From Rickettsiales bacterium (GTDB lineage: Bacteria; Pseudomonadota; Alphaproteobacteria; Rickettsiales; UBA3002): a stretch of DNA of 56,760 nucleotides. The position numbers and the translations under genes are program-made. Below are positions 42,581 through 56,745 of this stretch, piece by piece; the stretch's first letter is position 1, and each line of letters begins with the position of its first letter. The notes under the pieces were generated by a model. It saw only the letters and a program-made list of their open reading frames with translations. It did not search any database and was not told the DNA's origin. Where the stretch lies: the NCBI GenBank assembly GCA_044341105.1, contig JBIISI010000002.1:1-56760 (forward strand), read 5' to 3'.

Positions 42581-42668
42581 GGATGGGTGGCCGAGTGGTT
42601 TAAGGCAGCAGTCTTGAAAACTGCCGAGGTGCAAGCCTCCGTGAGTTCGAATCTCACCCCATCCGCCA
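42581..42668 (+). tRNA. tRNA-Ser (anticodon UGA)
   Basis: GGATGGGTGGCCGAGTGGTTTAAGGCAGCAGTCTTGAAAACTGCCGAGGTGCAAGCCTCCGTGAGTTCGAATCTCACCCCATCCGCCA. It has a long variable arm, the anticodon loop CTTGAAA, the acceptor pair GGATGGG/CCCATCC, and an encoded CCA. Confidence 0.9.
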
Positions 42669-42934: not shown

Positions 42935-43567
42935 ATGTATGCCACCGGGGGGGATTCTATGTCGCAGCCAATGCATAAGCTTTTTAACCGCGCTCGCTTA
43001 GATGATCGCCAAGTCAACGAACTGCTTGGGCTATCACACGGGATCATCGCCGATGGTAAAGTGAGCATGGAAGAAGCGCAGTACCTTCAAAAATGGCTGG
43101 TCGCTAATACGGCGGTGAAGGATAATCCACTGGTTGCCAATTTGCTGCTCCGTGTGAACGATATGCTGTCCGACAATGAGTTGGACCCAGAGGAAGCACA
43201 GGAGTTGTTTGAGACCCTCCGCAACTTCTCTGGCGGGGATTTTGAAATCGGCGAACTGCTGAAGTCCACGAGCCTGCCGTTTGACAAGCCACAGCCCGAC
43301 ATCTCCTTCGAGAAAACCAACTTCTGCTTTACCGGCACGTTTGCTTACGGCACGCGCAAGCATTGCGAAGATGCTGTGATCTCACGCGGAGCGACTGCAG
43401 GCTCACTTACGGCAAAAACCAGCTATTTGGTCATCGGCGTGTATGCGACCGACAGTTGGGCGCACTCTTCATATGGTCGCAAAATTGAAAAAGCCGTGGC
43501 CATGAAAGCAAAGGACTCCCATATCTGCATCGTTGGCGAACAGCACTGGGCTGGCTTCTTGAACTAA
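42935..43567 (+). CDS. TerB-like N-terminal domain / C-terminal BRCT domain fusion protein
   Basis: The N-terminus LLGLSHGIIADGKVSMEEAQYLQKWL is a TerB-like ADG..E motif. The C-terminus FCFTGTFAYGTRKHCEDAVISRGATAGSLTAKTSYLVIG...KIEKAVAMK...ICIVGEQHWAGFL follows the LigA-type BRCT pattern. ATGs at 42959 and 42971 are alternative starts. Confidence 0.6.
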   Translation: MYATGGDSMSQPMHKLFNRARLDDRQVNELLGLSHGIIADGKVSMEEAQYLQKWLVANTAVKDNPLVANLLLRVNDMLSDNELDPEEAQELFETLRNFSGGDFEIGELLKSTSLPFDKPQPDISFEKTNFCFTGTFAYGTRKHCEDAVISRGATAGSLTAKTSYLVIGVYATDSWAHSSYGRKIEKAVAMKAKDSHICIVGEQHWAGFLN

Positions 43568-43920
43568 ACTAGCTCGATCAGCCTGCGCTGATCATCCCAA
43601 ACGTAGCCGACCTGTATCAGCTCCGCGAGCGTCACATAGTTGGGGCATTTGCCATCGAGGATTGCCTCGATCACGTCCGGCGCAAGGAGCGTCAGCTTCA
43701 TTACCTTGGAAACATAAGGGCTGCTGAGGCCTTCCTTTTTGCTGATTGTATCGTGCGAGAGGCTGGGATCGTTCTCCATTATCGCCTGCCAATGAAATGC
43801 GCGGCCCAGCGCCTTCAGGATATTGGACTCGGATACGCTCGGTGGCGTTGGCTGCTGCGTTGGTGCGACCAGATATTTCCTGCCCCCATGGTTGCTTGCC
43901 ATCCTATGATTTCCTTTCAC
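43564..43920 (-). pseudogene. C-terminal DNA-binding fragment of a serine-recombinase-like protein (remnant)
   Basis: ILKALGRAFHWQAIMEND...ISKKEGLSSPYVSKVMKLTLLAPDVIEAILDGKCPNYVTLAELI matches the C-terminal tail I recall from alphaproteobacterial 'recombinase family' proteins (...YVSRILRLTLLAPDIVEAILDGRQP...). No catalytic N-terminal domain is present, and it overlaps the upstream gene by 17 nt. Confidence 0.4.
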
Positions 43921-44485
43921 TAATCAATGGTTTTACCGAATGAAGAGTCATGCACATTTTATCTGTGCCGAAAGAGGGAAAATGGCCATAAACTAGCGAG
44001 AGTTGGCTATCCGCCTCTGATTCCTCTGATTGATTGATAGCCGACATATACAGTGCTGATGCCAAACCGCTTCTGTCAGCACCGCCCTGGCAATGTATCA
44101 GCAATGGCTTTGGGGCGTTGCGCATGACAGCTATTAGCTCTGTCGTTTGTCCATAAGTAAGCCCCCGTTTTGCACTCATTCTAAAATTAAGGTGCTTCAC
44201 GTTAGCAGCTTTGGCTTCGGCCACTTCATTGTCGTACCAATCTGTGCCGGTGTTATCGCCGCGCAAATTCAATACAGATTTGATGCCATACTTCTGAACA
44301 ACCTCGGTCAATTCGCCAGGTTCTAATTGGCCAGAGCGATATAATTTATCAGGAATCACCTCATGATAATTATCGCTCAGGTAAAAACTGCCAACATACA
44401 GGGTGAGGATTGCTAGCGCAGAGGCACCGAGTTGGAATATTCGATTTTTTAGAATCGGCCTCACAAGAACAAATAAAAACTTCAT
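43904..44485 (-). CDS. membrane-anchored Cys-based (CX5R) tyrosine/dual-specificity/lipid phosphatase-family protein
   Basis: An N-terminal TM helix (IFQLGASALAILTLYVGSF) and the active-site loop LLIHCQGGADRSGLASALY (HCxxGxxRS). Confidence 0.75.
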   Translation of the reverse strand: MKFLFVLVRPILKNRIFQLGASALAILTLYVGSFYLSDNYHEVIPDKLYRSGQLEPGELTEVVQKYGIKSVLNLRGDNTGTDWYDNEVAEAKAANVKHLNFRMSAKRGLTYGQTTELIAVMRNAPKPLLIHCQGGADRSGLASALYMSAINQSEESEADSQLSLVYGHFPSFGTDKMCMTLHSVKPLISERKS

Positions 44486-45234
44486 TGCGCGGATACCAAG
44501 CTTTTATCGGTTAAGATTCTATGCCGCTTCAGGGTACTGATTCCGGCGGCTGTAATGCCAACCAGTGCCATTGCCAAAACTAAAAAACCGATATGTAGCC
44601 AGTGGCCTGCTAGCGCAGTGCCGAAATGCTCATATATTTCTACAAGGCATAATGTGACCGCAGTGGAAGCGAACGTAGAGTAATCCTTTAGGAAAATACG
44701 CCGCCAATTGAAATACATGCCTGCACGGGCTTGCCTGAACTGAGTAATACGCGGAATCCAACGTGGCACGTCTTTGCAGTAATCCGCATAAGCATCGCCA
44801 AATTTGTTCTGTAGGTAATTCTCCTCAGCATAGATGATGCACTGGTAAATAAACATATACAAGCTGATGCCCGCTACGATGACGAGTGGATCTCCGTGCA
44901 TGACGAATACCCCTGCGTAAATAAGCATATTGCCGAAATAGAGGGGGTTTCTGCACAATGAGAACATGCCTTGCGTTACAAGGTTCTCTGCATAAACTTT
45001 CTTATTGAGCCCGCCACGCTTGATGTAAGCAAAGCCAATAACTACGCCCCGCACGGCTAAGCCAGCAAGGGCCAAGCCAATGCCAATAGTTTCCTTGAAG
45101 TGAGCAAGTGCGCTGTTGCCAAACAACTCTGCAGGAGGAATGGCGATGGCAAACAATGCCAGGATGATGAAAGGAAAGAGTTTGTTGCGATAACGGAAAA
45201 GGAAGTTACCGATCAGAATCATGGATTTTTTCAT
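44482..45234 (-). CDS. ICMT/PEMT-family integral-membrane methyltransferase
   Basis: Polytopic. LVTQGMFSLCRNPLYFGNMLIYAG ... AEENYLQNKFGDAYADYCKDVPRWIP is the isoprenylcysteine carboxyl / phospholipid methyltransferase family C-terminal SAM-binding signature. Confidence 0.8.
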   Translation of the reverse strand: MKKSMILIGNFLFRYRNKLFPFIILALFAIAIPPAELFGNSALAHFKETIGIGLALAGLAVRGVVIGFAYIKRGGLNKKVYAENLVTQGMFSLCRNPLYFGNMLIYAGVFVMHGDPLVIVAGISLYMFIYQCIIYAEENYLQNKFGDAYADYCKDVPRWIPRITQFRQARAGMYFNWRRIFLKDYSTFASTAVTLCLVEIYEHFGTALAGHWLHIGFLVLAMALVGITAAGISTLKRHRILTDKSLVSAQ

Positions 45235-45241
45235 TGCACAC

Positions 45242-46000
45242 CTACTTTACAGCGATAATTCCGCAGAAATTATACCAGCGAAAGAAAACCTCGGTGCTGC
45301 GGAACCCGGTATCTTTTAATAATTGGATATTTTCTTCCAAACGGTATGGAATAAGCACGTTTTCTAAAGCTTCGCGCTTCTTAGCGATTTCAGTTTCCGA
45401 ATAACCGTTACGCTTTTTGAATTCGTAATAATGCTCGATATAAAGCCGGTTAAAAATAGCCTCTTCACAGGTCAATTTCTCTATCAGCAGAATGCAGCCC
45501 TGATGTTGCAAGCCGGAGTAAATAGACTTCATAACGCGTTCACGGTGCAACGGACGTACAAACTGCAAGGTTAGCAGCATGGTGACGACGCTGGCATTTT
45601 CGATGGAGAAGTGTCCGTTTAGATCAGCTTCCTGTAATTCAATTTTTCTGCCGCACTGTGCTGCATCTAACTTGACTTGCGCTTTTGCCAGCATCTCAGG
45701 AGCATTATCTACACCAATAAACTGCACATCCGGTGCTATCAGTTCATCGAGTGCTAGCAATGTTGTCGCCGTAGAACAGCCAATATCGTATAGGTTTGTT
45801 CCGGGCTTTGCAAAATCTCTAGCAAGCTCACAAACTTGGCGCTGCATTTCTTCATAGTAAGGAACAGACCTGCTCACCATGTCATCGAAAACATCGGCAA
45901 CGGTGGCGTTGAAAGCAAAGTCTGCTACAGGGTGATTTTTTTCACTAAAGACTGCGTCTTTTAGTTCCCGGCTTAGTTTGAGAGTTGAGTTACCATTCAT
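45242..46000 (-). CDS. cmoA: CmoA-like carboxy-S-adenosyl-L-methionine (Cx-SAM) synthase homolog
   Basis: Colinear with E. coli CmoA as I recall it. FDDMVSRSVPYYEEM aligns with FDDMIxRSVPGY, YDIGCS with YDLGCS, IENASVVTMLLTLQFV with IENASMVVLNFTLQFL, and FKKRNGYSETEIAKKREALENV with [22 protein letters not shown]. The terminal FCGIIAVK aligns with FGSLVALK. Confidence 0.8.
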   Translation of the reverse strand: MNGNSTLKLSRELKDAVFSEKNHPVADFAFNATVADVFDDMVSRSVPYYEEMQRQVCELARDFAKPGTNLYDIGCSTATTLLALDELIAPDVQFIGVDNAPEMLAKAQVKLDAAQCGRKIELQEADLNGHFSIENASVVTMLLTLQFVRPLHRERVMKSIYSGLQHQGCILLIEKLTCEEAIFNRLYIEHYYEFKKRNGYSETEIAKKREALENVLIPYRLEENIQLLKDTGFRSTEVFFRWYNFCGIIAVK

Positions 46001-46083: not shown

Positions 46084-46494
46084 TTAATTTACTGGTAAGC
46101 CCAGCACCATTTTGTAACGCTTATCGACACTCTCATGTAGATTGAGCGCCAACTGGTGATCGAATGATGTCGTGGAAAGGTGCATCATCTCTTGCTCTAA
46201 GGTAACGTTGTTGCCGTTCGGCTTCGTTTCATAGGTTTCTTGGCGCGGAATAACTGCGTAGTAAGGTGCGCTTAGATTGCTAGTTGTGGCTAAATGCGAT
46301 GCATTCGTGCGTGTCATAAGTAGGCGCTGATTTTCTTCCACCATTTGATTGAAGTCAGGTGCCTGCACGTCTTTCGCTTTAAAACCTGGGGTGTCGACGT
46401 TGGCAATATTCTGTGCAAGCACCGACACGCGCTGAGAACTGTAGCGCATTTTCTGGTCTATCATTTCTGTAAAAGCAGACTCAAGAAACCCCAT
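46084..46494 (-). CDS. flgB: flagellar basal-body rod protein FlgB homolog (orphan)
   Basis: SQRVSVLAQNIANVDTPGFKAKDV is the rod-protein N-terminal signature (ANIAN.DTPGY.A.D). NGNNVTLEQEMMHLS is the GN.V.LE.EM block. Confidence 0.7.
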   Translation of the reverse strand: MGFLESAFTEMIDQKMRYSSQRVSVLAQNIANVDTPGFKAKDVQAPDFNQMVEENQRLLMTRTNASHLATTSNLSAPYYAVIPRQETYETKPNGNNVTLEQEMMHLSTTSFDHQLALNLHESVDKRYKMVLGLPVN

Positions 46495-46498
46495 GTCA

Positions 46499-46990
46499 TT
46501 ACTCCTTAGATAAGGGCATCACATTGCTCATTTTCTTAGAGACAGTCGTGACCTGCTCTTGAAGCAGCTTGCAATATTCTGCGACATGCTCCTGCAATTG
46601 TGCGGTGATCTTGCGGCTTGCATCAACGCAGTTCTCAATGGATTGCTGTGTTATTTTTTGGTGCAGCTCAAAGGCAGCATTGACCGTATGGCATTGTACT
46701 GTTTCCTGAGGAATGGCGATAATCTGAGAAAAAGAACGATTGCCGCTATCGTTGAGGCCTGAAGAGATGGCACACAAGGTTCGTACCGTTCCGCCGTAAT
46801 AATCGGTGGCAGCTTGTACAGCCTCGCTTTGCAATTCAATAGTGGTTGCCAGCAATTTATTGCAGAGGTCTAGGGGATTTTGAAAAGCGCTGACATCAGA
46901 TAAGTGGTCTGACTGGCGTTTTCCGGTATTTTTTGGGGTGGCATGAGAGAAAGAATTATCTGTCGCCACTTTTTTTACGGCCTGATTCAT
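46499..46990 (-). CDS. hypothetical helical protein (163 aa), translationally coupled to flgB
   Basis: The preferred start is the ATG at 46990 (MNQAVKK), which follows a GGAGAA RBS; the track start is 47032. The stop lies 4 nt before the flgB ATG. The protein is Q/A/T-rich and helical (vaguely phasin-like), with no firm motif. Confidence 0.4.
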   Translation of the reverse strand: MNQAVKKVATDNSFSHATPKNTGKRQSDHLSDVSAFQNPLDLCNKLLATTIELQSEAVQAATDYYGGTVRTLCAISSGLNDSGNRSFSQIIAIPQETVQCHTVNAAFELHQKITQQSIENCVDASRKITAQLQEHVAEYCKLLQEQVTTVSKKMSNVMPLSKE

Positions 46991-47155
46991 GGTGCGATTC
47001 TCCATTAAAAGGTTGATAGGAAATGGGGACAAGACCGGCTGCCCCTATTGTCGAAGACTTTGGCCACTTTCGCGGTGCATGCGGAATCTCCGATGAGCGG
47101 TTCGTCTTCGACAAAGACTTGATCGTGCCGTTCCAGATTCAGTTTGGTGGAGCTA

Positions 47156-50100
47156 CTATTCATGGGAAACCTCACCAATATGCTGAGCGGGATGCGGATT
47201 CGGCGCGGGTGCTAGCTCGCGGCCCATCCGGAACCGATGGTAAAGGGCGGGCAACACCAGAAGGGTCAGGATGGTGGCAGTAATGAGGCCACCAATCACC
47301 ACGGTGGCTAAGGGCTTTTGCACCTCAGCCCCGGCACCGCTGGCGATGGCCATCGGTACAAAACCAAGCGAGGCAACCAAAGCGGTCATGAGAACAGGCC
47401 GCAAACGCGATAGCGCCCCTTCTCGCACGGCTTGTTCGCCGGGCAACCCTTCCCGCACCAGCTGGTTGATGCGGTTAATGAGCACCAAACCGTTAAGCAC
47501 CGCCACGCCAGAGAGGGCAATGAGGCCAACGGCTGCTGAGATAGAGAACGGCATGCCGCGTAGCCACAAGGCTAGGATGCCGCCTGTGAGTGCCAACGGC
47601 ACTCCACTGAACACCAACAATGCCTGCTTCGTTGATTTCAGTGCTGTGTACAGTAGCAAGAAGATCATGAAGAAGCAGATCGGCACTACTACCATCAGGC
47701 GTGCGGTTGCTTCCTGCAGGTTTTTGAACTGCCCGCCCCATTCCAACCAGTAGCCGGGTGGCACTTTCACCTGAGCGTCAATCTTCTCCTGAGCATCGGC
47801 CACGAACGAGCCAATATCGCGTCCGCGCACGTTGACTTGAACCACCATGCGACGCTTGCCGTTTTCGCGGCTGACCTGGTTAGGCCCTTCGGTGACAGTT
47901 AGCGTCGCCACTTCTTTCAATGGAACATGGCGTGGACGCGTGTGCTGTGTATTGGCCGCAGCGTCGTAGTCAGTCTCGGGTAAAAGAATCGGCAGATTGT
48001 TAAGGGCAGCTATATTCTCGCGCACGTTATCGGGTAACCTCACCACAAGGTTAAACCGCTTGTCGCCTTCGAAAATAAAACCGGAAGGACGGCCACCGAT
48101 AGCAATAGCCACCACGTTGAGCACGTCACCCGTGTTCATGCCGTAACGTGCAATCACTTCCTTATTTAGTTTCACCTCCAGCATTGGAAGACCCGAAACT
48201 TGCTCGGTCTTCACGTCCTCAGCACCCTCCACTTGGTTAAGGATGGCCGCGATCTGGTTGGCGGTCCGCTCCATCACTGCGAAATCTTCCCCGAAGACCT
48301 TTACCGCCACATCGCTCCGCACCCCTGAAATCAATTCATTGAACCGCATCTGAATGGGTTGCGTGAACTCATAATTGTTACCGGGAAGCTTCATCACGGC
48401 ACTGCTGATGCGTTCGATCAGGTCATTTTTCGCAAGCTCCGGATTCGGCCATTTCTCGCGCGGTTTGAAGATTACGAACGTATCGGATGCGTTCGGGGGC
48501 ATCGGATCAGATGCCATTTCCGCAGTACCGGTTTTGGAGAACACGAAATCCACTTCCGGGAAAGAACTGACCGTTTTTTCAACATCAAACTGCATCGCTT
48601 GCGATTGGCTGAGTGACGTAGATGGAATCCGAATCGCCTGCATGGCGATATCTTTCTCGTCCAGCGAGGGAATGAATTCCCGTCCTAGGATCATGAATAC
48701 CAGCATGGCCGCAGCAAAACTTATCAGAGCGCTGAAAATCATGAGCCCAGGACGGCGCAAGGCGAAATCGAGGCGCGGCGCATACCAGCGCTTGGCCCCG
48801 GTGATGATACGCCCCTCTTTTTCTTCAACCTTGCCAGTTACTACCAGTGCGAGCAGGGCGGGAACAAAAGTCAGTGACAGCACGAAGGCGGCGACCAGCG
48901 CAATGATGACTGTCATCGCCATCGGCTCAAACATCTTGCCTTCCACGCCGGTGAAGGTCAGGAGCGGCACATACACCATGATAATGATGGCTTGGCCAAA
49001 TACGGTTGGCTCGATCATTTCCTTGGCAGCTAGCATGACCTCATGCAGGCGCTCCTGAACAGTCAGCAAGCGTTTTTCATGATGTTGCCTTTCAGCTAAG
49101 CGACGTAGGCAGTTTTCGGTAATGATTACCGCCCCATCTACAATCAGACCAAAATCCAACGCTCCCAAACTCATCAAATTGCCACTGATGCCTGCGCGCA
49201 CCATGCCTGTGGCCGTCATCAACATGGCCAACGGGATTACCATGGCTGTAATGAGTGCCGCACGGATATTACCAAGCAGCAAGAAGAGTACGACGATGAC
49301 CAGTAATGCGCCTTCGATCAGATTTTTCTGCACCGTCGCAATAGTGCTATTTACCAGCTTAGTGCGGTTTAGTACCGTCTTGGTGTTGATATCGGGCGGC
49401 AGCGATTTGCGAATTTCCTTCAGTTTTGCATCCACCGCTTCCGATACAGTGCGGCTATTTTCACCGATCAGCATTAATGCGGTGCCAACTACGACCTCGT
49501 TGCCGTTCTCTGATGCACTGCCTGTGCGAAGTTCCTTACCGATAGAGATATCTGCTACATTACGCAGAAAAATGGGAATACCGCCCCGATTGGCGATAAC
49601 GATATTGCCGATATCGTCCATGGTTTTAATACGACCATCGGCACGTGCAACATAGGCCTCGCCATTACGTTCAATGAAACCTGCCCCAATGCTGTTGTTG
49701 TTGGATTCCAGCACTGCCACCAGTTCGGCAAACGACAAATTATAAGCGAGCAGCTTTTCAGGGTTGGGGGCAACATGGTATTGCTTCACGTAGCCGCCGA
49801 TGGCATCTACTCCAGCAACACCCGGAACCGCTTTTAACTGAGGACGAATGATCCAGTCCTGCACGGTGCGCAGGAAGGTTGCAAATTCATGGGGTTCTCG
49901 CAAGCGCTGGCCTTCCGGCGTCATGTAACTGCCATCGCTCTGCCAGCCGGGTTGGCCATCGTTGGTTTTTGCATCTTTACCGCCAACATGCTCGTATTCT
50001 ACGGTCCACATGTAAATCTCGCCTAGGCCGGTAGAAATGGCCCCGAGAGTTGGGTCGGCACCATCCGGCAAAGTATCACGCGCCTGTGCGATGCGTTCGC

Positions 50101-50431
50101 CGACTTGCTGGCGTGCGAAATAAATGTCAGTGTCCTCGGTAAACACCGCTGTAATTTGCGAGAAGCCATTGCGTGAAAGCGACCGCGTGCTTTCCAGGCC
50201 GGGAATGCCAGCCAGTGCTGTTTCCAGTGGGAACGTGACTTGTTGTTCGATCTCGACCGGCGAGTAGGCCGGTGCGACTGTCATGATCTGCACTTGGTTG
50301 TTGGTAATATCTGGCACGGCATCGATTGGCAGGCGTGTCAGCGAAACAATGCCGATGCCTGCGACCGCTAATGTTAGCAACGCCACCAGCATGCGCTGGC
50401 GTAAGGAAAACTCAAGAATACGAGAAATCAT
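47156..50431 (-). CDS. czcA: heavy-metal efflux RND permease, CzcA family (divalent-cation type)
   Basis: MISRILEFSLRQRMLVALLTLAVAGIG, 1091 aa. The TM4 motif LDFGLIVDGAVIITEN matches the DFGx3DGAx3(V)EN motif described for Co/Zn/Cd/Ni HME-RND pumps. Confidence 0.9.
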   Translation of the reverse strand: MISRILEFSLRQRMLVALLTLAVAGIGIVSLTRLPIDAVPDITNNQVQIMTVAPAYSPVEIEQQVTFPLETALAGIPGLESTRSLSRNGFSQITAVFTEDTDIYFARQQVGERIAQARDTLPDGADPTLGAISTGLGEIYMWTVEYEHVGGKDAKTNDGQPGWQSDGSYMTPEGQRLREPHEFATFLRTVQDWIIRPQLKAVPGVAGVDAIGGYVKQYHVAPNPEKLLAYNLSFAELVAVLESNNNSIGAGFIERNGEAYVARADGRIKTMDDIGNIVIANRGGIPIFLRNVADISIGKELRTGSASENGNEVVVGTALMLIGENSRTVSEAVDAKLKEIRKSLPPDINTKTVLNRTKLVNSTIATVQKNLIEGALLVIVVLFLLLGNIRAALITAMVIPLAMLMTATGMVRAGISGNLMSLGALDFGLIVDGAVIITENCLRRLAERQHHEKRLLTVQERLHEVMLAAKEMIEPTVFGQAIIIMVYVPLLTFTGVEGKMFEPMAMTVIIALVAAFVLSLTFVPALLALVVTGKVEEKEGRIITGAKRWYAPRLDFALRRPGLMIFSALISFAAAMLVFMILGREFIPSLDEKDIAMQAIRIPSTSLSQSQAMQFDVEKTVSSFPEVDFVFSKTGTAEMASDPMPPNASDTFVIFKPREKWPNPELAKNDLIERISSAVMKLPGNNYEFTQPIQMRFNELISGVRSDVAVKVFGEDFAVMERTANQIAAILNQVEGAEDVKTEQVSGLPMLEVKLNKEVIARYGMNTGDVLNVVAIAIGGRPSGFIFEGDKRFNLVVRLPDNVRENIAALNNLPILLPETDYDAAANTQHTRPRHVPLKEVATLTVTEGPNQVSRENGKRRMVVQVNVRGRDIGSFVADAQEKIDAQVKVPPGYWLEWGGQFKNLQEATARLMVVVPICFFMIFLLLYTALKSTKQALLVFSGVPLALTGGILALWLRGMPFSISAAVGLIALSGVAVLNGLVLINRINQLVREGLPGEQAVREGALSRLRPVLMTALVASLGFVPMAIASGAGAEVQKPLATVVIGGLITATILTLLVLPALYHRFRMGRELAPAPNPHPAQHIGEVSHE

Positions 50432-51068: not shown

Positions 51069-52028
51069 TTAGTCCTCATGCCCTGCACCAGCTTTGGAGA
51101 TATCGGCCTTCACCAAGAAGCTGTTTTTGCTGACGACCTCGACTCCAGCACTCAGGCCTTCAGTGATTTCGGTCGATTTAGCATCAGCAAGCCCTAGCGT
51201 TACTGGCACGGCACGATAGTGGGTGCCTTCCCGCACAAACACGACCTCTTTGCCTTCAAACCGCTGTATCGCAATTGTCGGCACGGCAAGGTTCACAGGC
51301 TGCGCCCGCACCACGGCATCGCCTTGCACCGTCATGCCTGCACGCCACTGCCCGGAACTATTATCGAGGGTTGCACGCGCAACGATGGTTTGGCTTGATG
51401 CTTCCGCCATAGGCTGGATCGTATCAAGCACGCTATCAGCAGTAAGTTTGCCGTCTAGCGTGCGCAGTTGAATGGCCTGTCCTTGCTGAATGGCTGGCAT
51501 ATCTGCCGCAAACACGAAGAATTCGACCCAAAGTTTTGAGAGGTCAGCCACCGTAAACACTGGAATATCCGCTGCGGTATCCCCCACGCTGATATTACGC
51601 TCAAGCACCACACCGTTCAGCGGTGAAGGCACAGCATAGACTTGCAGGCTGTCGTTGCTTTCTACTGTGGCGAGTTTCTCGCCGCGCTTTACTGGCTCAC
51701 CCACTTGCTTGAAGACTCCACGCACCACACCGGGGAAACGGGCTTTTACTGCTGCTGAGCGATTCTGATCGAGAATCACGCGGCCTGTAAGCTGTACGGT
51801 CTCTCGAATATCGCCGGGACCAACAACGATCGTTTCAATGCCCGCAGCCTGCGCCGCTTCAGCAGTAATTTCGGTGCTATCGGCTTGCTCGCCCTCCTCG
51901 TGGTGTTCCCCACTTTCGGTTGCCTTGGCGTTATTTTCAGGCAGTTTCTCGCCATCGAAAATGAAAAATGCTGCAATCGCCGCAATGACGAGCGCAATCA
52001 GCAGCAATGGTGTTTTATTCTTCCGCAT
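51069..52028 (-). CDS. czcB: heavy-metal RND periplasmic adaptor (CzcB/CusB-like MFP)
   Basis: An N-terminal TM helix followed by an MFP beta-barrel/lipoyl pattern (ARFPGVVRGVFKQVGEPVKRGEKLATVESN). It overlaps czcC by 14 nt. Confidence 0.85.
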   Translation of the reverse strand: MRKNKTPLLLIALVIAAIAAFFIFDGEKLPENNAKATESGEHHEEGEQADSTEITAEAAQAAGIETIVVGPGDIRETVQLTGRVILDQNRSAAVKARFPGVVRGVFKQVGEPVKRGEKLATVESNDSLQVYAVPSPLNGVVLERNISVGDTAADIPVFTVADLSKLWVEFFVFAADMPAIQQGQAIQLRTLDGKLTADSVLDTIQPMAEASSQTIVARATLDNSSGQWRAGMTVQGDAVVRAQPVNLAVPTIAIQRFEGKEVVFVREGTHYRAVPVTLGLADAKSTEITEGLSAGVEVVSKNSFLVKADISKAGAGHED

Positions 52029-53295
52029 GGTCGGTTCCTTTGGTGTTGGTATAGGGGGTGCTCAGGCGCTCCAGTTCAGCGACTTGCAAATGATAGTCAC
52101 GAAGCGCAGCCATATATTGCGCGCGCGCATCGAATAAGGTGCGCTGCGCATCGAGGACTTCGAGATACTGGAACTTGCCTGCGCCATAGCCTTGACGCGA
52201 TAGCTTGAAAGCCTCCTCTGCCGCCGGAAGCACCGTACCGCTGTAACTGGTGGCCTTCATGTACGCGGTGCGCTGCGCCGATTTGGCGAGGTTGTAACGA
52301 CGCAACAAATCTAACCGCGCCGTTTGCTGATCGCTTGCCGTACGCGTTACTTGCGCCCGCGCTGCTGAAATATTGCCCCGGTTGCTGTTCATGACTGGGA
52401 TGGGAATAGACAGGCCAATGACAAAAGCTTGATCCCCCGTTTGCTGCAATCGACTTACTCCAGCATTGATCGTTGGATCAGGAATTGCGCCTGCCTTCTC
52501 GATATCAAGCAGCGCGCGCGCGTGATCCTCCTGCAACCGTAGGCGCAGCATATCCGGTGTGCGCTCGATGGCTTCGATGTCAGGTTGGGCCGTGTCGCTC
52601 ACCTCAAAGAAGCTGGAAGCATCCAGCGTCTCTCCCAGCGCGCTGCGCCCTAAGACAGTTGCCAGCTGTGTGCGTGCGGCTGCCGCTTCTTGCCGCCCTT
52701 GCTCGACATTGTATTTGGCGGTGGCAAGGGTGACCTCGGCCTTACTTTTTTGAATTAGTGGTGATGCTGCTTCTGCTACACGCCGCGATACGCTTTTTAG
52801 TTCCTGCTGCGCGATGTTCAGCGCATCTTGTGCCAAGCGTAACGATTCCTGCGCTGCGACAGCGGTAGCAAACGCTTGCTTTACATCTCTTTCAACATCC
52901 ATCCGCGCGATGGCGGCATCAAGTTCTGCAATATGAAGCTGTTTATCGGCAGCCCCCCGTCTTGCTGCACGTTTGCCGCCCAATTCGATCTGTTGCGACA
53001 ATCCATAGAAATACTGATCGGTGTTATCGACCTCTCTGTAGATACCATTCCCTGCCAAGTTCGTTCCTTGAAGATCCAGCGAAGGATTGGGCGAGGTATC
53101 CGCTTGCTCAGACAGGCCTTTCGCGGTTTTGATTGCCGCATTGGCTGAAGCCACGCGGGGGGAGTTCATCATCGCCTCATCGACCGCTTGCGTAAGCGTC
53201 AACGGCGTAGACTTCACCTCTTCCTGAGCGAAAGCGGCTTGGGTGAATAGCAGCGCCCCAGCAAGGGAAGCCGCGCAAAAGCGTCGTGATAACAT
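52015..53295 (-). CDS. czcC: outer-membrane efflux protein (CzcC/TolC family)
   Basis: A signal peptide followed by LTLTQAVDEAMMNSPRV. OEP repeats are present (LDAAIARMDVERDVKQAF, LEVLDAQRTLFDARAQYMAALRDYH). Confidence 0.85.
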   Translation of the reverse strand: MLSRRFCAASLAGALLFTQAAFAQEEVKSTPLTLTQAVDEAMMNSPRVASANAAIKTAKGLSEQADTSPNPSLDLQGTNLAGNGIYREVDNTDQYFYGLSQQIELGGKRAARRGAADKQLHIAELDAAIARMDVERDVKQAFATAVAAQESLRLAQDALNIAQQELKSVSRRVAEAASPLIQKSKAEVTLATAKYNVEQGRQEAAAARTQLATVLGRSALGETLDASSFFEVSDTAQPDIEAIERTPDMLRLRLQEDHARALLDIEKAGAIPDPTINAGVSRLQQTGDQAFVIGLSIPIPVMNSNRGNISAARAQVTRTASDQQTARLDLLRRYNLAKSAQRTAYMKATSYSGTVLPAAEEAFKLSRQGYGAGKFQYLEVLDAQRTLFDARAQYMAALRDYHLQVAELERLSTPYTNTKGTDHAEE

Positions 53296-53854: not shown

Positions 53855-53895
53855 GCGGCACAGAAACGTAAAGAACTTAAGACTAATTGGCAGCT

Positions 53896-54843
53896 ATGAC
53901 CACTCAGCATACAACTGAAAAAACCGACCTCTATCGCATCCTTAGCCTCGATGGCGGAGGGGCTAAAGGTTTTTACACTCTCGGTGTTCTCAAAGAAATC
54001 GAAGGCATGATCGGCCATCGCCCATTATGCGAGAAGTTTGATTTGATCTTCGGCACCAGTACCGGCGCGATTATCGCTGCATTACTCGCTCTGGGTTACA
54101 AGGTGGATGATATTTATGCGCTCTATAAGGAATACGTCCCTACGATTATGAAGCGGCGTACCAAACGCGGCAAATCTGAGGCACTCGCCAATCTTGCCAA
54201 GCAAGTATTCGCTGACGCAAAGTTTGAAGACGTAAAAACAGCAGTCGGCATCGTTGCTACCCGCTGGATTGAAGAACGCCCTATGATCTTTAAAGCCAGC
54301 ATCGCGCAGGCGCATGGCAGCCACGGAACCTTCGCTCCGGGCTTTGGCGTGCCGATCGGCGATGCCGTCCAGGCATCCTGTTCTGCATATCCATTCTTCC
54401 GGCGCAAAACGGTTACCACTTCCAAGGATCACAAAGTCGAATTGGCTGATGGCGGCTTTTGCGCTAACAACCCAACGCTTTACGCAATCGCCGACGCGCT
54501 GCTTCCCCTTGATAAAAAGCCTGAGAACATCCGCGTTGTTAGTGTGGGTGTTGGCGTGTACCCAAAGCCAAAATCCATGAATGTTTTAAAGCGCTTCATT
54601 AATGCATTGCCAAGCGTCAAGCTGCTGCAAAAAACACTCGAGATCAATACGCAGTCCATGGATCAACTGCGCAACATTCTCTACAAAACCATCCCCACCG
54701 TGCGTATCAGCGAAACTTTCGAGCGGCCTGAAATGGCGACGGACTTCTTGGAATACGATCTAGACAAGCTAAACGTGTTGCTCCAACGCGGCGCTCAGTC
54801 CTTTGCAAAAGAAGAAGCGCGGTTGCGGGAGTTTTTAGTATGA
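53896..54843 (+). CDS. capV: patatin-like phospholipase (CapV-like CBASS effector)
   Basis: LSLDGGGAKGFY is the oxyanion-hole DGGGxxG motif, FGTSTGAII is the GxSxG nucleophile, and LADGGFCANNP supplies the catalytic Asp. The track ORF begins at a TTG at 53887. Confidence 0.8.
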   Translation: MTTQHTTEKTDLYRILSLDGGGAKGFYTLGVLKEIEGMIGHRPLCEKFDLIFGTSTGAIIAALLALGYKVDDIYALYKEYVPTIMKRRTKRGKSEALANLAKQVFADAKFEDVKTAVGIVATRWIEERPMIFKASIAQAHGSHGTFAPGFGVPIGDAVQASCSAYPFFRRKTVTTSKDHKVELADGGFCANNPTLYAIADALLPLDKKPENIRVVSVGVGVYPKPKSMNVLKRFINALPSVKLLQKTLEINTQSMDQLRNILYKTIPTVRISETFERPEMATDFLEYDLDKLNVLLQRGAQSFAKEEARLREFLV

Positions 54844-55730
54844 TTCCTGAAGCTCAGCTAGAAACTTGGTCACATCAAGGGGCAGGCATTGGCTCCCGCG
54901 ACACTTACAACCAATTACGTGGAGTCTTGTTGTCGCCGGATTCGCCTTATGCTGCCCGAACTTTTGATGTTTTCTTGCAGGGGTCATACGGTAACGACAC
55001 CAACATTTACTCGGAAAGCGATGTGGATGTCGTTATCCAACTCACCTCGGCTTTCAATTACGGCTTGGACGATTTGCCTGTTGAGCAGAAAACAGCCTTC
55101 CAAACAGCGTATTCCGGCGGTGTTGCCTACTCACTCACTCAGTTTAAACAGGAAGTTCAAGCGCACCTCACGGCCCGCTACCGCGCCGATGTTATTCCCG
55201 GCAAACGAGCGATCAATATCCAAGCCAATGGCAATCGGCGCAGTGCGGACGTCATCGTTTGCCAAGATTATCGCCGCTATCGTTCATTTTATTCCGTTTC
55301 GAGCCAAGATTATTATGAAGGGATATGCTTTAAGGATTCTGGCGGAACTTTGATTAAAAACTACCCGCGCTACCACTCCGACAACTGCACATCCAAGCAC
55401 CAAGCCACGAATGGCTATTATAAGCCGACTGTTCGTATCTTCAAAAATATGCGAGGCCGACTTATTGCTAACGGCGCGTTGCAAGAGGGTGATGCTCCAT
55501 CATATTTCATCGAAGGGATGTTGTGGAATGTACCAGATCATTGCTTCACGGGCAGCTATCAGCAAACAATTCTGAACTGCTTAGTATGGCTGAACGATAG
55601 CGATCATGCTCGCTTAGTCTGCGCCAATGATCAATACATGCTGGTTCACCCAACATCCGATGTGACGTGGCGCATAGAAAAACTGCAGAAGTTTTTAGCG
55701 GCAGCTACCAGCCTCTGCATGAATTGGTAG
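54840..55730 (+). CDS. CD-NTase / SMODS-type cyclic oligonucleotide synthase-like nucleotidyltransferase
   Basis: LQGSYGNDTNIYSESDVDVVIQ carries the pol-beta NTase G-S ... DxD motif, and RSADVIVC supplies a third acidic residue. The helical C-terminal half contains APSYFIEGMLWNVP. The ATGA overlap with the patatin gene mirrors the capV-dncV arrangement. Confidence 0.7.
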   Translation: MIPEAQLETWSHQGAGIGSRDTYNQLRGVLLSPDSPYAARTFDVFLQGSYGNDTNIYSESDVDVVIQLTSAFNYGLDDLPVEQKTAFQTAYSGGVAYSLTQFKQEVQAHLTARYRADVIPGKRAINIQANGNRRSADVIVCQDYRRYRSFYSVSSQDYYEGICFKDSGGTLIKNYPRYHSDNCTSKHQATNGYYKPTVRIFKNMRGRLIANGALQEGDAPSYFIEGMLWNVPDHCFTGSYQQTILNCLVWLNDSDHARLVCANDQYMLVHPTSDVTWRIEKLQKFLAAATSLCMNW

Positions 55731-55839
55731 GTTTGCTAAGGCAGCTCATACACTTGTATAAACATGCTGTACAATTCCCGCCAATATTGTAAAAATTCTC
55801 CTCCTTAAACACAATGTGCCATAAAAAAATTAGCTCTAT

Positions 55840-56745
55840 ATGCTACTACATAAAAAAACATCCGTGAGGTACTTTGTTAATGAGATCAAATACCAGATAC
55901 TCATTATATGTGTATTTGCCGTCGTAATTGGGCTGCTGGACGCACACCCTATTTTCCGGAGTCTCATGCTGCCACTCAGCATACCGGCACTCGTTAGTAC
56001 CGTAGTCTCATTGTTGCTGGCTTTCCGCACCTCCCAATCTTACGAGCGCTGGTGGGAAGCACGTTCTGTCTGGGGAGCCATCGTCAACGATTCAAGGACT
56101 TTTGTACGGCAGGTGATACAGTTCCTTCCTGAAGGCAATGAAACAGAAATAAAAGCTTTTGCGCAAAGGCAAGTGATATGGACTTATGCGCTGGGAGAGT
56201 CACTCCGCAGGCTCCCTTTTTCAGGAAAGGTGCAAGAGTATCTGGACGGCCAAGGGATCAGTGCCGCCAATATACCCAATGCCTTGTTGGACCAGCATTC
56301 ACTTCAGATTAAAAGTCTTGTGGCCAAGGGTACCTTGTCGGAATTCAGACAAATTCAGCTGGACAAGACTGTTGGCAGGTTGTGTGACAGCATGGGCAAA
56401 TGTGAAAGAATCAAGAACACTGCTTTCCCCTGGTCCTACAGCGTGCTGGTTCATACAATAATTTACGTCTTTGCTATCCTTTTACCGTTTGGACTGGAAG
56501 ACTCTCAACAAATAGTAGAGATACTGCTCACCATCCTATTACCTTCCCTGTTTCTTGCCATTGAAAAAACGGCCATCATTATGCAGGACCCGTTTGAGAA
56601 CACCCCCGTTGATACGCCAATGACAACATTGGCCGAGACCATAGAAATGAATATCCGTCAGATGACCGGGGAAAAAAACGTATCAAAGAAACCGGACGAC
56701 GGGCTTTACTATTGGTCAACCCCCATTTATAGGTCCAGTATTTAA
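55840..56745 (+). CDS. bestrophin-family (UPF0187/YneE) anion channel homolog
   Basis: LLAFRTSQSYERWWEARSVWGAIVNDSRTF is the bestrophin-homolog signature. There are four hydrophobic segments, and DPFENTPVDTPM lies near the C-terminus. Confidence 0.75.
   Translation: MLLHKKTSVRYFVNEIKYQILIICVFAVVIGLLDAHPIFRSLMLPLSIPALVSTVVSLLLAFRTSQSYERWWEARSVWGAIVNDSRTFVRQVIQFLPEGNETEIKAFAQRQVIWTYALGESLRRLPFSGKVQEYLDGQGISAANIPNALLDQHSLQIKSLVAKGTLSEFRQIQLDKTVGRLCDSMGKCERIKNTAFPWSYSVLVHTIIYVFAILLPFGLEDSQQIVEILLTILLPSLFLAIEKTAIIMQDPFENTPVDTPMTTLAETIEMNIRQMTGEKNVSKKPDDGLYYWSTPIYRSSI

Follow-up and report, generated by a model that had tools for sequence, protein, structure and literature searches.

Why would a gene of the CmoA family, whose Escherichia coli member converts S-adenosylmethionine (SAM) and prephenate to carboxy-SAM (Cx-SAM), lie directly next to a gene for a polytopic membrane protein related to methyltransferases? 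This question is raised by a 56,760-nucleotide stretch of DNA (hereafter the window; positions 1 to 56,760 of contig JBIISI010000002.1, assembly GCA_044341105.1), which is part of a 76.6-kb metagenomic contig assigned to a Rickettsiales bacterium and in which the two genes are followed by a third, encoding a membrane-anchored phosphatase. The original prediction, made from the letters of the window without database searches, took the three genes for one module that makes Cx-SAM, transfers a carboxymethyl rather than a methyl group to a membrane-bound acceptor, and uses the phosphatase to process a phosphorylated intermediate. In this analysis, we found the conserved unit to be the pair formed by CmoA and the ICMT/PEMT-type enzyme (hereafter the membrane enzyme), not the trio. 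This pair is real, widespread and apparently undescribed, and its comparative evidence, above all its gene linkages, suggests that the membrane enzyme is probably a Cx-SAM-dependent carboxymethyltransferase.

By sequence, the first gene of the pair belongs to the CmoA family, in line with the original prediction. Its product scores 245 bits against TIGR00740, above the trusted equivalog cutoff of 193.3, and falls below the narrower PRK15451 (173.5 against a cutoff of 285). It matches the E. coli (4GEK, 165 bits) and Haemophilus influenzae CmoA structures with 163-165 bits, and tblastn with E. coli CmoA returned 45245-45961 as the sole match in the window, at about 36% identity. In the E. coli enzyme, Arg199 forms a salt bridge with the carboxymethyl carboxylate and is a key residue that is not conserved in SAM-dependent methyltransferases, and the side chains contacting the cofactor include Tyr39, Asp62, Ser66, Asp89, Asn90, Asp117 and Asn132 (PMC3663124). 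The window CmoA keeps Tyr39, Asp62, Ser66, Asp89, Asn90, Asp117, Glu164 and Arg199 (E. coli numbering), so that the check originally proposed on the residues contacting Cx-SAM finds Arg199 and every listed contact except Asn132 in place. Arg199 corresponds to R209 of the window CmoA, and all 73 clade members have it; across the window CmoA and its 73 relatives, Tyr39, Asp62, Gly64, Asp89, Asp117, Phe137 and Glu164 are invariant as well, with Ser66 and Asn90 nearly so. The equivalent of Asn132 is an asparagine in the CmoAs of two loci linked to chorismate mutase, L091 and L093.

The usual partner of CmoA was not found nearby. In E. coli, the cmoA and cmoB genes overlap by 4 nt. A tblastn search of the window with E. 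coli CmoB (E ≤ 1e-3) returned no match, which bears out the prediction that no CmoB is encoded there, and the same query found nothing in 1.78 Mb of sequence from 173 related loci, 159 of which were matched by E. coli CmoA.

The second gene of the pair had been assigned to the ICMT family, and profile and structure comparisons agree. Its product scores 42 bits against the PEMT profile PF04191 (cutoff 25) and 20.3 bits against the ICMT profile PF04140, just below the cutoff of 24, and in a profile match its cofactor-core motifs LVTxG, RHPxY and EE..L...FG..Y..Y align with the structures 4A2N and 5V7P, RHP being RNP here. An AlphaFold 2 model (predicted local distance difference test score, pLDDT, 86; predicted template modelling score, pTM, 0.84) gave 5V7P, 5VG9 and 4A2N as top Foldseek matches, with probabilities of 0.97-1.00 and TM-scores of 0.27-0.39 over the core, and the credible fold matches were ICMT structures and the related steroid 5-alpha-reductases only. 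The membrane enzyme is thus predicted to have an ICMT/PEMT-type fold, not a Rossmann fold. In beetle ICMT, R246 reportedly binds the substrate carboxylate. In the present clade, 97% of members have isoleucine (Ile133) in the R246 column, and R62 aligns with beetle R173; because the equivalent of R246 is replaced, we do not class the membrane enzyme as an ICMT sensu stricto. The best curated family is LmtA (TIGR04571), with 108 bits over residues 9-205, far under the cutoff of 325. We had considered this likeness as specific evidence for lipid A, an argument weakened by the CzcN-like paralog in the same window (Table 1), which also matches LmtA best, with 63 bits.

Fusions of other kinds occur in the wider PEMT-like family, with an N-terminal PAP2 lipid-phosphate phosphatase, an EmrB-like MFS transporter, a C-terminal OmpA-like domain, a second PEMT domain in tandem, or a C-terminal class I methyltransferase (P0344, P0357, P0375, P0323; L170:3549-5708; P0283; P0302, P0407; P0352). 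The PAP2-PEMT fusions form a sister group, and the single context of theirs that was read (P0344) has no CmoA nearby.

What makes the two genes a unit is their conservation. In the window, 7 nt (gtgtgca) separate the TAG stop of the CmoA gene from the ATG of the membrane-enzyme gene, whose stop codon shares a 4-nt ATGA overlap with the phosphatase start, exactly the packing of three open reading frames (ORFs) first described. We assembled a genome set by a profile scan with the membrane enzyme, with one genome per species, in which the best 80 of 196 relatives were fetched. These 80 loci come from Rhizobium, Pararhizobium, Ensifer, Mycoplana and Ferrovibrio, from metagenome-assembled genomes (MAGs) labelled Rickettsiales, Micavibrio, Parvibaculum and Kiloniellaceae, and from three Verrucomicrobiota. 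In all 80, a CmoA homolog (57-94% identical) ends just upstream on the same strand, with a median intergenic gap of 11 nt (at most 32 nt in 75 of 79). A separate, independent contig scan, anchored on more divergent members, yielded a metagenome set of 75 loci with enough upstream sequence, and in 67 of these a CmoA (at least 45% identical) is the immediate neighbour, lying upstream with a single exception; another locus carries, upstream, a divergent domain of the CmoA family (TIGR00740, 147 bits). Overall, of the 173 related loci fetched, 162 show the order CmoA to PEMT, and most of these 162 lie outside islands, so that the pairing of CmoA with an ICMT-fold enzyme does recur across unrelated genomes, as the original prediction had asked. 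CmoA and the membrane enzyme diverge together: their all-pairs mirror-tree gave r = 0.905, a value that 0 of 999 Mantel permutations reached; this comparison replaced an earlier one of identities to the query, which showed no correlation between the two proteins and was uninformative.

Single loci add some detail. In Rhizobium mesoamericanum STM3625 (L005, 7910-8230), all that comes after CmoA is a decayed fragment of the membrane enzyme (36% identical over about 107 aa, with a called gene of 50 aa), and in another strain of the species (L059) the pair is intact, which suggests a recent decay of the membrane enzyme in STM3625. In some Rhizobium genomes, the pair lies in a housekeeping context, immediately upstream of the transfer-messenger RNA gene ssrA and with SspB nearby (L026, 8805-9174; L040, 8789-9158).

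The strongest argument that the membrane enzyme consumes Cx-SAM is its linkage to chorismate mutase, the enzyme that makes prephenate. An exhaustive search with the membrane enzyme covered 1.84 billion cluster representatives and returned 162 clusters at E ≤ 1e-30. Among the representatives listed, five 50%-identity clusters (P0319, P0382, P0394, P0397 and P0403) are fusions of PEMT with a C-terminal chorismate mutase (CM_2, 57-66 bits). In all four clusters with a readable context, the next gene after the fusion encodes CmoA, at most 30 nt downstream and overlapping in two, and these CmoAs score 219.9, 220.1, 213.3 and 228.3 bits against TIGR00740, all over the trusted cutoff. In seven further metagenome loci, CmoA-PEMT is immediately preceded on its strand by a gene for a bifunctional 3-deoxy-D-arabino-heptulosonate 7-phosphate (DAHP) synthase/chorismate mutase (PRK12595, 444 bits, cutoff 279). 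CmoA takes prephenate as an unusual co-substrate (PMC10491745). The linkage therefore supports prephenate use by the CmoAs of this clade, and the fusions and operons together would place the membrane enzyme in the same pathway.

If the membrane enzyme uses Cx-SAM, it should have a way to recognise the extra carboxylate. CmoB does so by Lys91, Tyr200 and Arg315, and its K91A substitution switches the enzyme to methyl transfer (PMC4482062); CmoX uses a key arginine (PMC12783734). In the membrane enzyme, an invariant basic loop, Y70-I-x-R73-G-G-x3-[KR]-x-[YF]-A82 (hereafter the RGG loop), lies directly before the adenine-binding LVTxG segment, and a K-[DE]-Y motif contains K183. Nearly every CmoA-linked member has both features, as do the five chorismate mutase fusions without exception; the CzcN-like paralog and the PAP2-PEMT fusions have neither. 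When the loop was scored from an alignment of the metagenome set, 67 loci had both the loop and an adjacent CmoA, five had the loop alone, none had CmoA without the loop and three had neither, so that the RGG loop tracks CmoA adjacency (Fisher's exact p = 8e-4). As a hypothesis drawn from this distribution and from analogy with the known consumers, the RGG loop and K183, with R73, K78 and K183 as candidates, may help to recognise the extra carboxylate. The change from RHP to RNP was also considered as a Cx-SAM signature and rejected, given that RNP also occurs in the CzcN-like paralog and in three of four PAP2 fusions, which are not CmoA-linked. In three loci (L118, L128 and L129), a PEMT-like gene with the RGG loop lies directly behind a gene for a hydroxypyruvate-isomerase-like protein (sugar isomerase/epimerase), with no CmoA in the available flank.

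From these elements, a mechanism can be proposed in which CmoA would convert SAM and prephenate to Cx-SAM, and the membrane enzyme would take Cx-SAM in place of SAM and pass its carboxymethyl group (+58 Da) on to an acceptor accessible from the cytoplasmic side of the inner membrane. In the ICMT fold, the cofactor site is at the cytoplasmic face, and the C-terminal chorismate mutase fusions fit this placement. In the window, the pair is carried on a tRNA-Ser-linked metal-resistance island, where it has gained a translationally coupled membrane phosphatase.

Clues to the acceptor come from neighbouring genes elsewhere. In six loci, five from genomes of Rhizobium or related Rhizobiales and one from a metagenome, the pair adjoins genes for a PmrA-like receiver and for a phosphoethanolamine-lipid A transferase of EptA type (591 bits, cutoff 500). 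A PmrA/QseB-like regulator is found in 28 loci and a QseC/PmrB-like kinase in 14, all under the equivalog cutoffs, and an ArnT/PMT-family glycosyltransferase, a weak match, follows the pair in one fusion locus (L176). Metal contexts recur as well, namely czc islands of two degrees of divergence, together with a P-type ATPase, a CDF transporter and, upstream in L091, a heavy-metal-type kinase. Together, these neighbours favour an inducible modification of an envelope lipid, and tRNA is not plausibly the acceptor. Given use of Cx-SAM, the phosphate or headgroup of lipid A or another envelope lipid has a substantial chance of being the acceptor, one still short of even; the amine of phosphatidylethanolamine is a rather doubtful candidate, and other acceptors make up the remainder. 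If a single guess is to be made, it would be a lipid A phosphate, with polyprenyl phosphate, phosphatidylethanolamine and a small molecule as further possibilities. The most complete form of our proposal stands somewhat below an even chance: the pair may represent the first membrane-embedded, ICMT-fold Cx-SAM carboxymethyltransferase system, adding a carboxymethyl group not observed so far to a lipid of the envelope, be it lipid A at a phosphate or a phospholipid such as phosphatidylethanolamine at its headgroup. It would do so in many Alphaproteobacteria (Rhizobium, Ensifer, Mycoplana and Rickettsiales-like lineages) and some Verrucomicrobiota, often under PmrAB-like or metal-responsive control, and could be mobilised on metal-resistance islands.

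Several observations weigh against the proposed mechanism. To our knowledge, no ICMT-fold enzyme has been reported to use Cx-SAM. The methionine-moiety contact Asn132 is a leucine (L142) in the window CmoA, and Leu, Ile or Val across all 73 alphaproteobacterial-type pair-linked CmoAs. The mirror-tree correlation is what would be expected for any two vertically co-inherited genes, and a PEMT with the RGG loop occurs without a detectable CmoA nearby in four or five loci (among them L118, L128, L129 and L170). The only low-confidence part of the structural model is the loop of residues 73-82, that is, the proposed determinant of carboxylate recognition, although such low confidence is also what a ligand-ordered lid might show. 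Finally, the EptA, ArnT and two-component neighbours belong to a minority of loci, which are phylogenetically non-independent.

How far do these points favour other explanations? In one of them, the membrane enzyme would be an ordinary SAM methyltransferase of LmtA or PEMT type and CmoA would serve an unlinked consumer, for instance a CmoB elsewhere in the genome acting on tRNA cmo5U, with adjacency reflecting co-regulation or hitch-hiking. All characterised enzymes of the ICMT/PEMT fold (ICMT, PEMT, LmtA and MddA) do use SAM, and our search for CmoB, being confined to the loci, leaves room for such a consumer. Against it stand the close same-strand adjacency in every one of the 80 genomes, in Alphaproteobacteria and Verrucomicrobiota alike, and the failure to find CmoB in the 1.78 Mb of flanking sequence; moreover, the chorismate mutase is fused to the membrane enzyme, not to the CmoA that comes next, which would be puzzling were the membrane enzyme unconnected with prephenate and Cx-SAM. 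We therefore consider this explanation unlikely. A drifted CmoA clade, working as a plain methyltransferase or on another SAM derivative, so that the two enzymes modify one substrate in succession without Cx-SAM, would account for the clade-wide loss of Asn132, for 28 clade-specific switches that set it apart from the CmoAs of E. coli and H. influenzae, and for the low identity to E. coli CmoA. It is more improbable still, in view of the trusted equivalog score, the invariant Arg199 and Glu164, and the chorismate mutase linkage, which makes sense only for a prephenate-using enzyme; moreover, the divergent homologs TglE, MccS and phage CmoA are proven Cx-SAM synthases (PMC12783734, PMC10491745).

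Other alternatives concern the acceptor and the functional link between the genes. The carboxymethyl group of Cx-SAM could go to a small molecule, hydrophobic or volatile, or to a thiol or metal(loid) species, yielding for example a thioglycolate-type chelator or a betaine-like compound in metal stress. MddA, an ICMT-fold enzyme that methylates methanethiol, would be the model for such an activity; the membrane enzyme has weak similarity to MddA (24.8 bits), and the recurring metal contexts (czc, P-type ATPase, CDF and heavy-metal-type kinase) would suit it. However, the best full-length similarity is to LmtA, a lipid A enzyme, the EptA, ArnT-like and PmrAB-like neighbours point to the envelope, and most pair loci lie outside metal contexts, so that we judge a small-molecule acceptor about as improbable as an ordinary SAM methyltransferase. 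A chance juxtaposition of the three genes in a mosaic mobile island, for which the unequal identities between island copies and the exchange of the phosphatase gene described below might be cited, is scarcely credible: it is refuted for the pair by its synteny in 162 of 173 loci, most of them outside islands, and is possible for the phosphatase only. A Cx-SAM-dependent carboxymethyltransferase is the reading that these data most readily suggest.

The phosphatase stands apart from this unit. As predicted, it is a membrane-anchored CX5R phosphatase, with 42.1 bits against PF13350 (Y_phosphatase3, cutoff 22.2) and the P-loop motif HCQGGADRSG; a sequence search of the PDB with it returned no match. 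A homolog is found in 13 of 162 pair loci and within 300 nt of the pair in only eight of 162, in varying orientation, which contradicts the idea of the trio as a unit. Only island copies have it directly behind the pair, and these fall into two levels of divergence, with phosphatases 100% and 65% identical; in two island variants (L001 and L004) a SnoaL-like gene takes its place. The phosphatase is thus a recurrent but facultative, island-associated accessory, and the role once suggested for it, on a phosphorylated intermediate, is poorly supported because the gene is not conserved with the pair. Two apparent leads were discarded: the PAP2-PEMT fusions, as a sister group without the RGG loop, offer at best an analogy, and the apparent placing of a phosphatase next to the fusion locus L093 proved to be a coincidence.

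The window copy of the pair lies in a region that the original prediction had called a horizontally acquired island next to metal efflux genes with a second ICMT paralog, a description supported by base composition, by a tRNA-Ser edge, by the czcCBA genes and by the CzcN-like gene among them (Table 1). The GC content drops from about 0.60 to 0.45-0.52 at about 42.7 kb and stays low through the window end, the tRNA gene lying exactly where the drop occurs; no integrase was seen from this edge up to the window end. When the island was compared with plasmids by megablast, the tRNA region alone gave a match, and an Rfam scan of the window and five loci found no riboswitch. The FlgB-like and phasin-like genes, between czcA and cmoA and far from any flagellar genes, are found only in close island copies, in which the membrane enzyme is at least 89% identical, and not in the divergent island L007. 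CmoA and membrane enzymes with 89-94% identity occur in MAGs labelled Azospirillum, Micavibrio and other Alphaproteobacteria, and a patatin gene adjoins czcC in L002 and L003 too. Compared with the window, L002 has CzcA and phosphatase proteins that are 100% identical, a CmoA and membrane enzyme that are 94% identical and a phasin-like protein that is 84% identical. The island is a mosaic, and the comparison of L002 and L003 suggests recombination within it.

Table 1. Features of the window in and around the low-GC island, with the evidence for each
Feature	Positions	Strand	Evidence and remarks
tRNA-Ser(TGA)	42581-42668	+	ARAGORN and Rfam; edge of low-GC island
BRCT-like ORF	42935-43567	+	After tRNA-Ser
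ParB-like fragment	43564-43920	-	Overlaps the phosphatase gene end by 17 nt
Cys-based phosphatase (HCX5R), N-terminal membrane anchor, 193 aa	43904-44485	-	PF13350 42 bits
ICMT/PEMT-fold polytopic membrane enzyme (predicted), 250 aa	44482-45234	-	PF04191 42 bits; second of conserved pair
CmoA-family carboxy-SAM synthase (predicted), 252 aa	45242-46000	-	TIGR00740 245 bits; first of conserved pair
Orphan FlgB-like gene	46084-46494	-	TIGR01396 74.7 bits, cutoff 59; directly upstream of cmoA
Phasin-like gene	46499-47032	-	PF09361 30.6 bits
CzcA-type RND efflux pump	47156-50431	-	PF00873 1025 bits
CzcN/NccN-like ICMT-family paralog, 214 aa	50444-51088	-	PF04191 48.7 bits; inside czc operon, between czcB and czcA; overlaps czcB end by 20 nt
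CzcB-type membrane fusion protein	51069-52028	-	HlyD_D23 94 bits
CzcC-type outer membrane factor	52015-53295	-	PF02321 139 bits
Patatin-like phospholipase, unassigned 296-aa ORF, bestrophin-family channel	53887-56745	+	Past czcC, in low-GC region

If our proposal is right, its consequences would reach beyond this island. Cx-SAM is so far known from few pathways, those of tRNA cmo5U, 3-thiaglutamate, McC-like antibiotics and phage DNA, and a membrane consumer of the ICMT fold would extend its chemistry to membrane components. A function would be given to a pair that is annotated in rhizobial genomes as tRNA (cmo5U34)-methyltransferase and methyltransferase family protein or similar, and a new lipid modification of +58 Da would be expected, with possible effects on surface charge, metal binding, polymyxin resistance and symbiosis. 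The enzyme would also be a natural membrane carboxymethyltransferase for bio-alkylation engineering. E. coli already makes Cx-SAM, and strains of Ensifer and Rhizobium can be cultured, both of practical use in following this up. The claim that no system of this kind has been described is consistent with full-text searches on carboxy-SAM, in which the consumers found were CmoB, TglF, MccB-CTD, phage CmoX and some methyltransferases for DNA and small molecules that are engineered or promiscuous, with no ICMT/PEMT-fold or lipid-directed enzyme among them; all of those found are soluble Rossmann-fold proteins. A search for cmoA in rhizobia was swamped by genus names and gave nothing useful among the papers listed, and an apparent mention of CmoA in a paper on Coxiella lipid A turned out to be the name of a medium, 'cMoAb'.

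Among known systems, the pair resembles CmoA-CmoB of E. coli tRNA cmo5U34 synthesis in its first enzyme family and, we infer, in its logic, an adjacent downstream gene encoding the consumer of Cx-SAM; it differs in that the consumer is polytopic and of the ICMT/PEMT fold, lacks a Rossmann fold and has no similarity to CmoB that a sequence search could detect. A CmoA homolog beside a transferase other than CmoB is likewise found in TglE/TglF (3-thiaglutamate), MccS/MccB-CTD (McC-like antibiotics) and phage CmoA/CmoX (5-carboxymethylcytosine), systems whose function was revealed by gene neighbourhood (PMC12783734, PMC10491745). Their transferases recognise the carboxylate by means of basic residues and are soluble Rossmann-fold enzymes acting on peptides, nucleotides or DNA, whereas here the enzyme would be an integral membrane protein of the ICMT fold. 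The membrane enzyme may thus work like CmoB, TglF, MccB-CTD and CmoX, but it is not homologous to them.

Likeness of other kinds links the pair to enzymes and operons of the envelope. LmtA, the lipid A 1-phosphate O-methyltransferase of Leptospira, shares the membrane ICMT fold and shows by example that a phosphate of lipid A can be O-alkylated from the cytoplasmic side, although it uses SAM and is not known to be CmoA-linked. CzcN/NccN proteins belong to the same superfamily and carry the R-N-P variant of RHP, but they lack the YIxRGG...YA loop and K183 and are not described as CmoA-linked; CzcN is an ICMT-family protein of czc clusters (PMC7563307) whose function is unknown in the literature. 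By their defining features, the pair is not a member of the CmoB, LmtA or ICMT families. Its surroundings in some genomes recall pmrCAB-type operons (eptA-pmrA-pmrB): in the six Rhizobium-type loci the pair lies between or beside the EptA-type transferase and the PmrA-like regulator, and in Ensifer genes for a regulator resembling PmrA/QseB and a kinase resembling QseC/PmrB come after it, unlike the majority of loci and unlike the window, which has no such regulator. Where the other CmoA-coupled systems are confined to a biosynthetic gene cluster or a phage, the CmoA-PEMT pair is chromosomal and widespread in Alphaproteobacteria.

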